Below, one piece after another: positions 1-4,630 of a stretch of 4,630 nt of DNA (positions within the stretch are counted from its first letter, which is position 1; every line of letters begins with the position of its first letter). The position numbers were made by a program, and so were the translations under genes. The stretch is from IMG/VR virus record IMGVR_UViG_2663763286_000024. One strand, given 5' to 3'. Under the pieces are notes generated by a model that ran no database searches, was not told the DNA's origin, and was given only the letters and a program-made list of their open reading frames with translations. This stretch comes from a virus. Its lineage: Duplodnaviria; Heunggongvirae; Uroviricota; Caudoviricetes.

Positions 1-2
1 TA

Positions 3-119
3 ACGTGGGTGGACTGGTATAACAATCGACGATTGCTGGAAAGGCTGGGCCATATTCCTCCGGCAGAAGCAGAAAAAGCTTATTATGCTTCCATCGGAAA
101 TAATGATCTGGCAGCCTGA
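3..119 (+). CDS. IS3-family transposase OrfB, C-terminal fragment (5' end outside window)
   Basis: Frame 3 is open from the window edge to TGA at 117-119 and translates TWVDWYNNRRLLERLGHIPPAEAEKAYYASIGNNDLAA. The YNxxR...LG..P.E pattern is typical of IS3-family OrfB C-termini. The other two frames have stops within 25 nt. Confidence 0.75.
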   Translation, partial: TWVDWYNNRRLLERLGHIPPAEAEKAYYASIGNNDLAA

Positions 120-136
120 GTTCACAGATAAAATAC

Positions 137-161
137 TCTCCAGGAAACCCGGGGCGGTTCA
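137..161 (+). repeat. Right terminal inverted repeat (IRR) of IS copy 1
   Basis: Reverse complement of 137-161 is TGAACCGCCCCGGGTTTCCTGGAGA, against TGAACCGCCCCGGAAATCCTGGAGA at 4250-4274. Confidence 0.7.
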
Positions 162-238
162 CCCGGCAATTTCTGCAATCTGCGAAGCTGGCGATCGGTC
201 AGACTTAAATGCCTGACAACTTCAGTCTGCGTAGCCAC
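162..238 (-). pseudogene. Probable 5' stub of terminase small-subunit (Nu1/NohD-like) gene, truncated by the IS insertion at 161/162
   Basis: On the minus strand a GTG at 238-236 is preceded by GAGGTGAGGA (Shine-Dalgarno-like) and an in-frame stop one codon upstream. The frame then stays open for 25 codons (VATQTEVVRHLSLTDRQLRRLQKLP) to the IS junction. The start lies about 195 bp from the cosN end, matching lambda geometry where Nu1 starts about 190 bp from the left cohesive end. Sequence similarity to Nu1 was not verified. Confidence 0.25.
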
Positions 239-285
239 TCCTCACCTCGCAAAAACTCTCACCTCACAATTAGCACAAAACCGAT

Positions 286-384
286 CATGTCCGGTTTATA
301 TGTCCATTTTTTGCGCATGTCCGGTTCACGGAAAGCCCGTTCTTATATTTTTCATGTAGTTAACTTGCAGAGAAACCGGACATG
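286..384. repeat. cosB-like terminase-binding repeats: three copies of CATGTCCGGTT (two direct at 286-296 and 316-326, one inverted at 374-384)
   Basis: Exact 11-mer present three times. Positions relative to cosN (about 49-59, 107-117 and 137-147 nt) and orientation (nearest copy inverted relative to the other two) mirror the lambda R3/R2/R1 arrangement. The AT-rich spacer 327-373 lies where lambda has the IHF site I1. Confidence 0.6.
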
Positions 385-470
385 GTTCCCGGAAAATTTT
401 CATAAATAGCGAAAACCCGCGAGGTCGCCGCCCCGTAACCTGTCGGATCGCCGGAAAGGACCCGCAAAAT
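286..470 (-). other. cos site (cosB - cosN - cosQ side) of a lambdoid phage
   Basis: Reverse complement of 422-433 is GGGCGGCGACCT, the lambda 12-nt cohesive end. The roughly 45 nt on the cosB side (377-421) and 30 nt on the other side (434-465, CGTAACCTGTCGGATCGCCGGAAAGGACCCG) match my recollection of the lambda left and right termini with few differences. Confidence 0.75.
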
Positions 471-632
471 GATAATAATTATCATCTACATGTCACAACG
501 TGCATCTACGCCATCAAACCACGTCAAATAATTAATTATGACGCAGGTATCGTATTAATTGATCTGCATCAACTTAACGTAAAAACAACTTCAGACAATA
601 CAAATCAGCGACACTGAATACGGGGCAACCTC

Positions 633-827
633 ATGTCAACGAAGAACAGAACCCGCAGAACAACAACCCGCAACATCCGCTTTCCTAACCAAATGATTGA
701 ACAAATTAACATCGCTCTTGATCAAAAAGGGTCCGGAAATTTCTCAGCCTGGGTCATTGAAGCCTGCCGTCGGAGGCTAACGTCAGAAAAGAGAGCATAT
801 ACATCAATTAAAAGTGATGAAGAATGA
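633..827 (+). CDS. ylcI: Small basic ribbon-helix-helix-like DNA-binding protein (YlcI/DUF3950-like), 64 aa
   Basis: ATG at 633 with GGGG 7 nt upstream, 64 codons to TGA. Arg/Thr-rich N-terminus, then a predicted beta-strand (IRFP), helix (NQMIEQINIALDQ), G-x-S/N turn (KGSGN) and helix (FSAWVIEACRRRL), as in Arc/MetJ/CopG proteins. Size and position next to cos match the DLP12 ylcI locus as I recall it; the symbol is tentative. Confidence 0.6.
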   Translation: MSTKNRTRRTTTRNIRFPNQMIEQINIALDQKGSGNFSAWVIEACRRRLTSEKRAYTSIKSDEE

Positions 828-991
828 ACATCCCGCGTTCTTCCCTCCGAACAGGACGATATTGTAAATTCACTTAATTACGAGGGCATTGCAGTAATTG
901 AGTTGCAGTTTTACCACTTTCCTGACAGTGACAGACTGCGTGTTGGCTCTGTCACAGGTTAAGTAGTTTGAATGATTAGCAGTTATGGTGA

Positions 992-1198
992 TCAGTCAAC
1001 CACCAGGGAATAATCCTTCATATTATTATCGTGCTTCACCAACGCTGCCTCAATTGCCCTGAATGCTTCCAGAGACACCTTATGTTCTATACATGCAATT
1101 ACAACATCAGGGTAACTCATAGAAATGGTGCTATTAAGCATATTTTTTACACGAATCAGATCCACGGAGGGATCATCAGCAGATTGTTCTTTATTCAT
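992..1198 (-). CDS. ybcW: Small acidic hypothetical protein, 68 aa (YbcW-like lambdoid moron)
   Basis: ATG at 1198-1196 (minus) with GGAG 7 nt upstream, 68 codons. Synteny (between the cos-proximal RHH gene and the DUF1398-like gene near bor) and length match DLP12 ybcW and a lambda right-end ORF as recalled. AT-rich. Confidence 0.6.
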
Positions 1199-1246
1199 TT
1201 TGTCGCTCCATGCGCTTGCTCTTCATCTAGCGGTTAAAATATTACT

Positions 1247-1272
1247 TCAAATCTTTCTGTATGAAGATTTGA
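1247..1272. promoter_or_regulatory. Perfect 9-bp inverted repeat TCAAATCTT-N8-AAGATTTGA in the divergent intergenic region between the 68-aa and 136-aa genes
   Basis: Seen directly: 1247-1255 and 1264-1272 are exact reverse complements. Located 49 bp upstream of the minus-strand start at 1198. Candidate operator or 5' leader hairpin. Confidence 0.3.
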
Positions 1273-1483
1273 GCACGTTGGCCTTACATACATCTGTCGG
1301 TTGTATTTCCCTCCAGAATGCCAGCAGGACCGCACTTTGTTACGCAACCAATACTATTAATTGAAAACATTCCTAATATTTGACATAAATCATCAACAAA
1401 ACACAAAGAGGTCAGACCAGATTGAAACGATAAAAACGATAATGCAAACTACGCGCCCTCGTATCACATGGAAGGTTTTACCA

Positions 1484-1894
1484 ATGGCTCAGGTTGCCAT
1501 TTTTAAAGAAATATTCGATCAAGTGCGAAAAGATTTAAACTGTGAATTGTTTTATTCTGAACTAAAACGTCACAATGTCTCACATTATATTTACTATCTA
1601 GCCACAGATAATATTCACATTGTGTTAGAAAACGATAACACTGTGTTAATAAAAGGACTTAAAAAGGTTGTAAATGTTAAATTCTCAAGAAATACGCATC
1701 TTATAGAAACGTCCTATGATAGGTTGAAATCAAGAGAAATCACATTTCAGCAATACAGGGAAAATCTTGCTAAAGCAGGAGTTTTCCGATGGGTTACAAA
1801 TATCCACGAACATAAAAGATATTACTATGCCTTTGATAATTCATTACTATTTACTGAGAGCATTCAGAACACTACACAAATCTTTCCACGCTAA
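1484..1894 (+). CDS. ybcV: Hypothetical protein, DUF1398/YbcV-like lambdoid moron (136 aa from the ATG at 1484; the frame is open from 1361)
   Basis: The frame is open 1361..1894. The ATG at 1484 has a strong Shine-Dalgarno (GGAAGG at 1470-1475, 8-nt spacer) and gives 136 aa, matching the recalled length of E. coli YbcV. Alternative starts are TTG 1361 (177 aa) and ATG 1442 (150 aa, no SD). Strongly AT-rich compared with the neighbouring lysis genes. Confidence 0.7.
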
Positions 1895-2185
1895 ATCATA
1901 ACGTCCGGTTTCTTCCGTGTCAGCACCGGGGCGTTGGCATAATGCAATACGTGTACGCGCTAAACCCTGTGTGCATCGTTATTAATTATTCCCGGACACT
2001 CCCGCAGAGGAGTTTCCCTGTCAGGGCTGCGGACATAGTTAATCCGGGAATACAGTGACGATCCTTCGCATCTGACATACATTAATAAATATTAACAATA
2101 TGAGATTTCAACTCATTGTTTAGGGTTTGTTTAATTTTCTACACATACGATTCTGCGAACTTTAAAAAGCATCGGGAATAACACC

Positions 2186-2479
2186 ATGAAAAAAATGCTA
2201 CTCGCTACTGCGCTGGCCCTGCTTATTACAGGATGTGCCCAACAGACGTTTACTGTTCAAAACAAACCGGCAGCAGTAACACCAAAGGAAACCATCACCC
2301 ACCATTTCTTCGTCTCTGGAATTGGGCAGAAGAAAACTGTCGATGCAGCCAAAATTTGTGGCGGCGCAGAAAATGTTGTTAAAACAGAAACCCAGCAAAC
2401 ATTCGTAAATGGATTGCTCGGTTTTATTACTTTAGGCATTTATACTCCGCTGGAAGCGCGTGTGTATTGCTCACAATAA
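2186..2479 (+). CDS. bor: Bor outer-membrane lipoprotein (lambda Bor / Iss family, serum-resistance associated), 97 aa
   Basis: Translation MKKMLLATALALLITGCAQQTFTVQNKPAAV... matches lambda Bor as I recall it. Signal peptide with lipobox LITGC. Opposite strand to the lysis cassette and immediately downstream of Rz, as in lambda. Confidence 0.93.
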   Translation: MKKMLLATALALLITGCAQQTFTVQNKPAAVTPKETITHHFFVSGIGQKKTVDAAKICGGAENVVKTETQQTFVNGLLGFITLGIYTPLEARVYCSQ

Positions 2480-2486
2480 TTGCATG

Positions 2487-2510
2487 AGTTGCCCATCGAT
2501 ATGGGCAACT
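2487..2510. terminator. Hairpin (10-bp stem AGTTGCCCAT / ATGGGCAACT, 4-nt loop) between convergent bor and Rz; possible bidirectional terminator
   Basis: Perfect inverted repeat at 2487-2496 and 2501-2510, 8 nt after the bor stop and immediately after the Rz stop. There is no clear U-tract on either side, so the terminator call is weak. Confidence 0.35.
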
Positions 2511-2972
2511 CTATCTGCACTGCTCATTAATATACTTCTGGGTTCCTTCCAGTTGTTTTTGCATAGTGATCAGCCTCTCTCTGAGGGTGAAATAATCCCG
2601 TTCAGCGGTGTCTGCCAGTCGGGGGGAGGCTGCATTATCCACGCCGGAGGCGGTGGTGGCTTCACGCACTGACTGACAGACTGCTTTGATGTGCAACCGA
2701 CGACGACCAGCGGCAACATCATCACGCAGAGCATCATTTTCAGCTTTAGCATCAGCTAACTCCTTCGTGTATTTTGCATCGAGCGCAGCAACATCACGCT
2801 GACGCATCTGCATGTCAGTAATTGCCGCGTTCGCCAGCTTCAGTTCTCTGGCATTTTTGTCGCGCTGGGCCTTGTAGGTAATGGCGTTATCACGGTAATG
2901 ATTAACAGCCCAAGACAGGCAGACGATGATGCAAATAACCAGAGCGGAGATAATCGCGGTTACTCTGCTCAT
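2511..2972 (-). CDS. Rz: Rz spanin, inner-membrane subunit (i-spanin), 153 aa
   Basis: Translation [55 protein letters not shown]... matches lambda Rz as recalled. Start overlaps the R stop (ATGA). Confidence 0.93.
2570..2752 (-). CDS. Rz1: Rz1 spanin, outer-membrane lipoprotein subunit (o-spanin), 60 aa, embedded in Rz in the +1 frame
   Basis: Translation [60 protein letters not shown] has a lipobox (VVGC) and a proline-rich segment, and matches lambda Rz1 as recalled. Confidence 0.88.
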
Positions 2973-3445
2973 ACCTCAATCTCTCTGACCGTTCCGCCAG
3001 CTTCTTTGAATTTTGCAATCAGGCTGTCAGCCTTATGCTCGAACTGACCATAACCAGCGCCCGGCAGTGAAGCCCAGATATTGCTGCAACGGTCAATTGC
3101 CTGACGAATATCACCGCGATCAATCATCGGTAAAGCGCCACGTTCTTTAATCTGCTGCAATGCCACTGCGTCCTGGCTTTTGGGGGAGAAGTCTTTCAGG
3201 CCAAGCTGCTTACGGTAAGCATCCCACCAGCGTGAAAGAAGCTGATAACGTCCGGCTGCTGTTGATTTGAGTTTGGGGTTTAGCGTGACAAGTTTGCGAG
3301 GGTGATCGGAGTAATCAGTAAATAGCTCTCCGCCTACAATGACGTCATAACCATGATTTCTGGTTTTCTGCCGTCCGTTATCCGTTCCTTCTGACCATGC
3401 CACCATATCGAGGAAAGCTTTACGCTGAGGATTAAGATTTTGCAT
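2969..3445 (-). CDS. R: Endolysin R (lambda-type lytic transglycosylase), 158 aa
   Basis: Translation ...[46 protein letters not shown]... matches lambda R as recalled, including the catalytic-Glu region WSEGT. Only the first 7 residues differ (MQNLNPQ here, MVEINNQ in lambda as recalled). Start lies inside the 3' end of the holin gene. Confidence 0.93.
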
Positions 3446-3749
3446 TTTTCACCCCTGTCAGTCGTTCCCAGAAGTATGTCAGTGCAACCGAACCCATCGC
3501 ACCACTAATCCCCGCTGTCGCGAGAATCATGTAAATACTGAATCCACTTTCGATACTGATCAGGCCACCAATAACACCGGTGAATCCCGACACCACTATC
3601 TGAGCCAAAGCATTTATCCAGCTCCACGTTGCTTTACTCTGCTTCACATCTATCAGGTAGCGGACCAGACCGCCCCAACCTGCGATGATCAGCAAAACGA
3701 GCCAGAACGCTCCGGCAAGGCTCTCTTTTTCGTGCATATGAATAGCCAA
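3432..3749 (-). CDS. Holin, class I topology (three predicted TMDs), about 101-105 aa; not lambda S by sequence
   Basis: Sits in the S position directly upstream of and overlapping R. Three hydrophobic segments (LAGAFWLVLLIIAGWGGLV, WINALAQIVVSGFTGVIGGLI, FSIYMILATAGISGAMGSVAL) and a short charged C-terminal tail. The ORF-track start at 3749 is a TTG; the first ATG is at 3737 (codon 5). Sequence is unlike lambda S (MKMPEKHDLLAAILAAKEQG...). Confidence 0.8.
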   Translation of the reverse strand: MAIHMHEKESLAGAFWLVLLIIAGWGGLVRYLIDVKQSKATWSWINALAQIVVSGFTGVIGGLISIESGFSIYMILATAGISGAMGSVALTYFWERLTGVKNAKS

Positions 3750-3854
3750 TGTTTCGCCGCCGACAAAAGGCCGGGACGTTAAATGTCAGAAATCAGGCTC
3801 ACGGGGTAATTTAACGACAAAGCACGGAGTTGATGCTCCCCGCAAGCCTGGAAT

Positions 3855-3877
3855 AAAAAAGCCAGCATGTAGCTGGC
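3855..3877 (-). terminator. Rho-independent terminator on the minus strand (tR'-like), upstream of the holin gene
   Basis: Minus strand reads GCCAGC-TACAT-GCTGGC followed by TTTTTTATT (stem 3877-3872 and 3866-3861, U-tract 3860-3855). Lies about 105 nt upstream of the holin start, analogous to lambda tR' at the end of the 6S leader. Confidence 0.5.
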
Positions 3878-3953
3878 AACAGAGGGTTAAGCAATATCAA
3901 CTCAACAGCTGAAGACACCCTGGCTGGGGTACGTTGGAAGGATACTCACCGCC

Positions 3954-3989
3954 CAGAAACAGAAAAGCCCAAGGCTTTAAACCTCGGGC
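3954..3989 (-). terminator. Second hairpin plus U-rich tract on the minus strand (8-bp stem with one G-U, 7-nt loop)
   Basis: Minus strand reads GCCCGAGG-TTTAAAG-CCTTGGGC followed by TTTTCTGTTTCTG. Lies between the candidate late promoter and the tR'-like terminator. Confidence 0.35.
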
Positions 3990-4046
3990 TTGAATTTGGA
4001 TTACGGCCAGTGCGTACAACATTGGCAAAATATCAGATTTACATAA

Positions 4047-4075
4047 AATATATGATTTTTAATCCAGTTTTGCAA
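4047..4075 (-). promoter_or_regulatory. Candidate sigma70 late promoter (pR'-like): TTGCAA - 17 bp - TATATT on the minus strand
   Basis: -35 at 4075-4070 and -10 at 4052-4047 on the minus strand, with a predicted start near 4040, about 185 nt upstream of the terminator U-tract at 3855 (lambda 6S RNA is about 194 nt). A weaker alternative is TTGCCA (4028-4023) - 17 bp - CGTAAT (4005-4000). Motif inspection only. Confidence 0.3.
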
Positions 4076-4249
4076 TATCTTGCTGTGAAAATGTGGTCTT
4101 TTGTTTTGAACGTGTTTTCGTTAAAAGCAATAAAGCTTGGCTATCAAGCTGTAGAAAAATGTGCTTCATTGCAACCCAGCGTTCAGTAAATGTCTCAGAC
4201 CAGTTTTTTGATGTCACTCCCACCAGTGATGCCAACTCCTGGTATTCAT
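4059..4249 (-). pseudogene. 3' fragment of an ORF truncated by IS copy 2; positionally where the late antiterminator Q gene would be
   Basis: The minus-strand frame is open from the IS junction (4249) for 62 codons (EYQELASLVGVTSKNWSETFTERWVAMKHIFLQLDSQALLLLTKTRSKQKTTFSQQDIAKLD) to TAA at 4061-4059. It has no start codon, because its 5' part would lie beyond the IS. It does not resemble lambda Q as I recall it, so identity is unverified. Confidence 0.3.
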
Positions 4250-4274
4250 TGAACCGCCCCGGAAATCCTGGAGA
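4250..4274 (+). repeat. Left terminal inverted repeat (IRL) of IS copy 2
   Basis: TGAACCGCCCCGGAAATCCTGGAGA; 22 of 25 positions match the reverse complement of 137-161; TG...CA termini typical of the IS3 family. Confidence 0.7.
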
Positions 4275-4303
4275 CTAAACTCCCTGAGAAAGAGGTAAAC
4301 AGG

Positions 4304-4630
4304 ATGACTAAAAATACACGTTTTTCCCCCGAGGTCCGTCAACGGGCAGTTCGTATGGTTCTGGAAAGTCAGGGCGAATATGACTCACAATGGGCGGCAA
4401 TTTGTTCCATTGCCCCAAAGATTGGCTGTACACCAGAGACTCTGCGTGTGTGGGTTCGTCAGCATGAGCGGGATACCGGGAGTGGTGATGGTGGACTCAC
4501 CACCGCTGAACGTCAGCGTCTGAAAGAGCTGGAACGTGAAAATCGTGAACTGCGCCGCAGTAACGATATCCTTCGCCAGGCTTCCGCTTATTTTGCGAAG
4601 GCGGAGTTCGACCGCCTCTGGAAAAAATGA
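4304..4630 (+). CDS. IS3-family transposase OrfA (HTH DNA-binding and leucine-zipper protein), 108 aa
   Basis: ATG at 4304 with AGAGG about 9 nt upstream. N-terminal helix-turn-helix region and C-terminal heptad-like [25 protein letters not shown]. Ends with TGA at the window edge, directly after an A6 run (4622-4627) that would be the IS3-type -1 frameshift site into OrfB. Confidence 0.88.

Follow-up and report, generated by a model that had tools for sequence, protein, structure and literature searches.

Positions 162–238 of the DNA analysed here, a stretch of 4,630 nt referred to as the window, very probably represent the 5′ remnant of a lambda-type nu1/terS pseudogene, interrupted by an insertion sequence (IS) after codon 25, in a prophage remnant that is doubly defective and has kept a complete cos site. 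On its minus strand, the window shows the late region of a lambdoid prophage, lying between two directly repeated IS copies. The gene order on this strand is Q′ – putative pR′/tR′ – holin – lysozyme – Rz – (bor, ybcV, ybcW, ylcI) – cosQ/cosN/cosB – nu1′, and the coordinates of the individual features are given in Table 1. Neither an Rfam family nor a tRNA was detected in the window. For annotation, 162–238 should be entered as a terS pseudogene fragment and 4059–4249 as a Q fragment.

Table 1. Features of the window, with the strand and the basis of each assignment.
Feature	Position	Strand	Basis or remark
IS629/IS1203 (IS3 family) copy 1, right end	1..161	+	160/161 identical to the annotated L016 copy
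Terminase small subunit (nu1/terS) stub, MATQTEVVRHLSLTDRQLRRLQKLP-G	162..238	-	100% identity to the L002 terS 5′ end
38-aa read-through ORF (stub + 13 IS codons), TAA 124-122	122..238	-	ORF reading
Shine-Dalgarno region GAGGTGAGGA	239..248	-	Sequence
cosB, non-lambda type	279..388	-	Repeated 11-mers CATGTCCGGTT
cosN, 12-nt cohesive end GGGCGGCGACCT + next 33 nt	389..433	-	Equals lambda bp 1-45
cosQ heptamer GGGTCCT	457..463	-	Sequence; surrounding ~200 nt lambda-like
ylcI (YlcI/YnfO, DUF3950)	633..827	+	
ybcW	992..1198	-	
ybcV (DUF1398)	1484..1894	+	
bor (serum-resistance lipoprotein)	2186..2479	+	
Rz endopeptidase (RzpD type)	2511..2972	-	Rz1-like ORF embedded at 2570-2752
Lysozyme R (glycoside hydrolase family 24)	2969..3445	-	
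Holin	3432..3737	-	
Late-promoter-like site 4075-4047, hairpin terminator-like site 3991-3965	3965..4075	-	Consensus matches only
Antiterminator Q C-terminal remnant (residues 168-229 of 229)	4059..4249	-	
IS629/IS1203 copy 2, left end (IRL TGAACCGCCCCGG...; orfA 4304-4630)	4250..4630	+	379/381 identical to the L016 copy

Identity of the 25-codon stub

A sequence-only reading of this DNA had proposed a GTG start with a good Shine-Dalgarno sequence, placed at the distance from cosN at which lambda has its Nu1 start, in a frame that meets the IS end after 25 codons. Each of these elements was observed. The GTG is at 238–236 on the minus strand, immediately downstream of the Shine-Dalgarno region, with the first GAGG 6 nt upstream. 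It lies at nucleotide 196 from the cos left end, compared with 191 for the lambda Nu1 ATG. The 77 nt of the stub comprise 25 codons and a further 2 nt, and the IS terminus falls at 161/162. The frame remains open past the IS end for 13 more codons; the resulting 38-aa product is presumed to be a non-functional fusion, and an exact-product look-up found no called gene on record for it.

Window 162–480 is 100% identical to a segment of NZ_CP027591.1 (2014C-3011, L002), in which the same GTG starts a CDS annotated as 'terminase small subunit'. The identity breaks exactly at the IS terminus, beyond which two additional bases (TG) agree by chance, and the stub agrees without a difference with codons 1–26 of the annotated terS. 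The same GTG is also the annotated start in the viable phage PhiR12_1. Among 5,426 complete E. coli genomes, window 162–400 was matched in 1,165, each time under a 'terminase small subunit' feature.

The full-length terS protein has 169 aa in OkiPb01713 (NZ_AP042682.1, L015) and in the intact prophage L017; in L002, the gene is cut close to its end by an IS2 element. The intact protein matched the Pfam family PF07471 (Phage_Nu1) with 68 bits over residues 49–150 (cutoff of 30), a region that excludes the stub, which is placed in the family by nucleotide identity only. It also matched PHROG 57, 'terminase small subunit', over residues 1–163 (2.9e-50). BLASTP against lambda Nu1 showed 46% identity between residues 73–164 and 86–177 (E 9e-27), with no similarity in the N-terminal ~70 aa. 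When the intact protein was compared by sequence with solved structures, no meaningful match emerged. The terS gene overlaps terL in the intact relatives L017 and L019 and in PhiR12_1, and in L017 and PhiR12_1, terL is followed by the W, portal, protease, decoration and capsid genes. By its nucleotide identity, the stub is the beginning of a terS gene of the Nu1 family, as the sequence-only reading had held. The feature at 162–238, with codons 1–25 only, is a fragment of a Phage_Nu1 family gene and not a functional member of it.

When analysed alone, the stub had no match in Pfam and reached only E 0.047 against PHROG 57; its good match was PHROG 7289, a group whose function is not known. The similarity that had been expected to lambda Nu1, phage 21 gp1 and NohD was not seen, and a lambda-, 21- or NohD-like stub sequence was rejected by BLASTP, tblastn and profile comparison. 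As the N-terminal domain is of a different type, the BLASTX comparison that had been suggested against these three proteins would have failed, and the stub is assigned through its identity with intact genes that share its type. The remainder of nu1 was also sought elsewhere in the window; it is absent, and that placement was rejected.

That the 25-codon frame might be a chance ORF, or the start of an unrelated small HTH gene, was considered with the same data. Short ORFs with a GTG start are common, and the stub alone matches no curated terminase model. However, it shares every nucleotide with the start of a Phage_Nu1-family gene for a 169-aa protein, an identity that stops exactly at the IS terminus, its start agrees with RefSeq genomes and a viable phage, and its distance from cos is correct. 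This explanation has already been refuted by these observations and retains a negligible probability.

N-terminal domain type and the cos site

Alignment of 32 Nu1-family proteins showed three interchangeable types of N-terminal domain on one conserved C-terminal body, a pattern in the aligned sequences that fits the modular exchange of packaging specificity. Of 50,697 phage records searched with tblastn, only 13 had the N-terminal type of the stub, and lambda, 21 and N15 were not among them.

An AF2 model built on the 32-member alignment showed a short strand, helices at residues 4–10 and 15–22, a wing and a helix at 38–55, with a pLDDT of ~81 for residues 1–50. The best compact local matches of this model in a Foldseek search of the PDB were MerR-type winged helix-turn-helix domains and an excisionase, none of them significant (best E 0.49), and lambda gpNu1 was not recovered. 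Comparison with the lambda-type N-terminal domain by hhalign gave a colinear but weak match of residues 4–34 to 5–34 (E 0.0057, probability 6.5%). The winged helix-turn-helix match for which a check had been advised is thus weakly favoured by the layout of the AF2 model, whereas the Foldseek and hhalign values are not significant. A winged helix-turn-helix fold is plausible for this type of N-terminal domain on the model. In lambda TerS, the recognition helix comprises residues 17–24 and the wing residues 31–39, while TerL binding requires the C-terminal half of the protein (PMC9026076). On the model, the IS cut would fall directly after helix 2, the predicted counterpart of the lambda recognition helix.

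The cos site had been described as intact, and at the sequence level all of its parts were found: the cosQ heptamer at 463–457, the cohesive end GGGCGGCGACCT at 433–422 and the repeats of cosB. On the cosQ side, identity to the lambda right end is ~95% over the 207 nt that precede the cohesive end. In cosB, one exact copy of the 11-mer CATGTCCGGTT is present at phage bp 50–60 (window 384–374), and two inverted exact copies are present at bp 108–118 (326–316) and bp 138–148 (296–286). A degenerate forward copy at bp 145–155 (289–279) overlaps the last exact one. Lambda R3 occupies bp 50–65 (PMC9026076), and the first copy of the 11-mer occupies the position of this site. In the viable phage PhiR12_1, the repeats are unchanged and the spacers carry the substitutions, with 15 differences over 239 nt, a pattern that is not statistically decisive. 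The repeats are putative TerS recognition (R) sites.

Three lambda-like packaging specificities have been documented, those of lambda, 21 and N15 (PMC4669245). A candidate fourth specificity is marked here by CATGTCCGGTT as its R repeat and by an N-terminal TerS domain whose sequence is unrelated to those of lambda, 21 and N15. It may be speculated that the stub and cosB belong to such a fourth, uncharacterised specificity and that the orphan intact cos is still recognised by co-resident phages of the same specificity, serving as a mobilisation handle for bor and the lysis genes or as a decoy; we regard this combined proposal as unlikely. If it were true, cos would either be the handle by which the bor/lysis segment is mobilised, or a decoy at which abortive packaging into the adjacent DNA is started, at a cost to helper yield. 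The recognition type formed by this cosB and TerS is common but unstudied, and could interest those working on packaging specificity and on prophage-prophage interference.

The PhiR12 phages, which are viable, carry the same cosB/TerS type, and the type is widespread among E. coli prophages, with 1,165 of the 5,426 complete genomes having it. In OkiPb01713 (L015), the cos site at ~6860–6880 has a 3-nt deletion in the 12-nt cohesive end (GGG---GGCGACCT), which suggests that its cosN has decayed and is probably uncleavable.

The two IS copies, the late region and the origin of the remnant

The IS copies were compared with a 1310-bp annotated IS1203-family copy in O121 WL1277 (L016). Their near-identity to it and the inverted repeats at the termini (TGAACCGCCCCGG / CCGGGGCGGTTCA) identify both as members of IS629/IS1203. 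In copy 1, the transposase C-terminus ends with a stop at 117–119 and the terminal inverted repeat ...CCCGGGGCGGTTCA ends at 161. The copies have the same orientation, and their inner flanks are CCC (162–164) at copy 1 and CAT (4247–4249) at copy 2. IS629/IS1203 elements are 1310 bp long, have a programmed frameshift between orfA and orfB and, where the insertion is simple, duplicate 3 bp of the target. Compared with these, the window copies show nothing notable beyond a G-to-A change at 4263 in the left repeat of copy 2 (CCCCGGAAATCC versus CCCCGGGAATCC in the compared IS1203 copy).

Six IS629/IS1203 copies with both flanks were inspected. Three of them had 3-bp duplications, and the remaining three, in L015, L017 and the first copy of L016, had none and adjoined deletions. 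In O121 WL1277, the IS lies at ~codon 113 of terS, with both gene halves present and the target site duplication (TSD) TGG. In OkiPb01713, the IS adjoins a truncated terL beside tail-fibre remnants, with no duplication.

This type of terS gene has been hit by IS elements elsewhere. In addition to the IS629/IS1203 insertion in O121 WL1277 (L016 4590–6412), IS2 is present at codon 161 in 2014C-3011 (L002 5163–5660), and an IS accompanied by a deletion is located just downstream of the gene in OkiPb01713 (L015 4817–6220). Many shortened versions of this terS type, of 99–143 aa, are present in the protein database.

At the other end of the phage segment, copy 2 removes residues 1–167 of Q, and the last 62 codons remain (4249–4059). 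As Q is truncated, late transcription through holin, lysozyme, Rz, cos and nu1′ would depend on Q supplied in trans. A promoter-like sequence, TTGCAA-17-TATATT, overlaps the end of Q′ on the minus strand (4075–4047), and a strong hairpin with a 12-bp stem and a T run (3991–3965) lies downstream of it. By their position, these sites may be the counterparts of lambda pR′/tR′. In the window as a whole, 14 terminator-like sites were found, against 3.9 expected.

The window is a mosaic. Positions 162–565 follow the L002 type, which has the 169-aa TerS, with informative bases at 533 and 565. From ~600 on, the window is 99.7–99.9% identical to a DLP12-like late module (L004) that elsewhere lies beside a 181-aa NohD-type Nu1. 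The joint is located between 566 and ~640, between cos and ylcI, and is ordinary for lambdoid phages. Over 3,861 nt, the window differs from L004 at 6 positions, none of which yields a rare protein. The ylcI protein was found in 10,167 blocks, and among the matches listed, NohD-type Nu1 was present in all ten contexts.

When both IS junctions were compared by BLAST with the 5,426 complete E. coli genomes, neither was matched in one piece, and exact junction patterns had 0 matches in representative-genome, viral and metagenome contigs. None of the five junction-spanning ORFs was on record as a called gene in exact-product look-ups.

Two accounts of how the remnant arose are at roughly even odds. 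According to one, whose probability we place a little under one half, copies 1 and 2 inserted independently into an otherwise complete prophage, and the remaining 143 nu1 codons, followed by terL and the head genes, resume on the far side of copy 1. In that case, a 3-bp duplication of the target (CCC) would be expected, with GATATCGGGGCACCC abutting the left end of the IS, TGAACCGCC..., and nu1 would be split but recoverable through precise excision or recombination. The same gene is so arranged in O121 WL1277 (N-terminal part, IS, C-terminal part and the TGG duplication), and half of the copies inspected carry 3-bp duplications; however, the other half lack them and lie beside deletions, as in L015. 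The window moreover stops short of the far side of the IS, and neither junction is present in any collection searched. According to the other account, which comes very close to an even chance, IS-mediated deletion or rearrangement caused the remainder of nu1 with the morphogenesis genes on one side, and the early region with the Q N-terminus on the other, to be lost or moved, leaving a 4.1-kb remnant. The phage segment stops within essential genes at IS termini on both ends, the related loci without a TSD (L015, the first copy of L016 and L017) have deletions beside their IS copies, and this terS type is often truncated among public proteins, all of which are consistent with deletion; yet the window ends inside both IS copies and gives no direct evidence of it.

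A composite transposon, in which the direct IS copies would have moved the 4.1-kb cos-lysis-bor segment to a site outside a prophage, has only a slight probability, of the order of a few in a hundred. An IS pair in the same orientation does bracket the segment, which contains the moron gene bor and a complete cos. However, neither junction was found a second time among the 5,426 complete genomes or among the viral, metagenome and representative-genome contigs, and hence there is no sign of spread; the truncated genes at both inner ends match the outcome expected of two insertions or deletions in situ.

Consequences for packaging and comparison with known systems

The 1310-bp IS629/IS1203 element cuts nu1 off after codon 25, directly behind the putative recognition helix. 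The remnant, or the 38-aa fusion, would retain helix 1 and this helix only and be devoid of the wing, of the helices for dimerisation and oligomerisation and of the C-terminal TerL-binding region. The large subunit could then not be tethered to cosB by the remnant, and the gene would be a pseudogene. Since the wing, the linking helix and the TerL-binding half are missing, the remnant presumably cannot act as TerS, given the roles described for these parts (PMC9026076). The sequence-only reading had made the failure to package depend on the rest of the gene not lying immediately beyond the IS. An insertion of 1.3 kb behind codon 25 would inactivate the gene whatever follows the IS, and this proviso is unneeded.

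The element would be doubly defective, without late antitermination by its own Q and without its own TerS, and it is predicted to be unable to express its late genes or to package itself. The earlier statement that the prophage cannot package itself holds only for a self-encoded terminase and does not extend to packaging in trans, for which a helper could suffice. Since the cos site is complete, the DNA could be cut and packaged by a co-resident phage that shares the cosB type, and a terminase supplied by a co-resident or an infecting phage of this specificity would be the only plausible means of encapsidation. Where a suitably placed second cos is lacking, packaging that starts at a prophage cos leads to stalled, non-infectious particles (PMC4669245).

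The phenomenon as such is already known: IS629/IS1203 elements erode lambdoid prophages in EHEC-like E. coli, and a nu1::IS has been published. Only the uncharacterised type of cosB and TerS N-terminus is mildly new.

The region resembles lambda in its cosQ, in its cosN with an identical first 45 nt, and in the similar distance of the start codon from cos. The C-terminal two-thirds of the intact TerS are 46% identical to Nu1, and intact relatives have the terL-W-portal order. It differs from lambda in that the N-terminal ~70 aa and the cosB repeats have no sequence relationship to their lambda counterparts, in that the two exact downstream repeats have the same orientation here, whereas lambda R2 and R1 are opposed, and in that the gene in the window is a 25-codon fragment.

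In the Sp4 prophage of E. coli O157:H7 Sakai, nu1 is disrupted by an IS and the DNA is still packaged, probably by the terminase of Sp14 (Asadulghani et al. 2009, PMC2669165). The presumed helper is a sister prophage, and the cos sites of the two are nearly identical (PMC2669165). Like the window, Sp4 is a lambdoid prophage of an EHEC-type genome with an IS-interrupted terS and a retained cos. The window nevertheless represents a separate insertion event, as its junction is found in 0 of 5,426 complete genomes, O157 included, and it has a truncated Q in addition. Packaging in trans has been demonstrated for Sp4, whereas for the window it is suggested by analogy.

The third comparison is with NohD and NohA, the 181-aa Nu1 homologues of the cryptic prophages DLP12 and Qin. 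Window 389–4249 is 98–99.9% identical to prophages bearing a NohD-type gene beside the same cosN, while the cosB and the stub of the window are of the other, 169-aa type.
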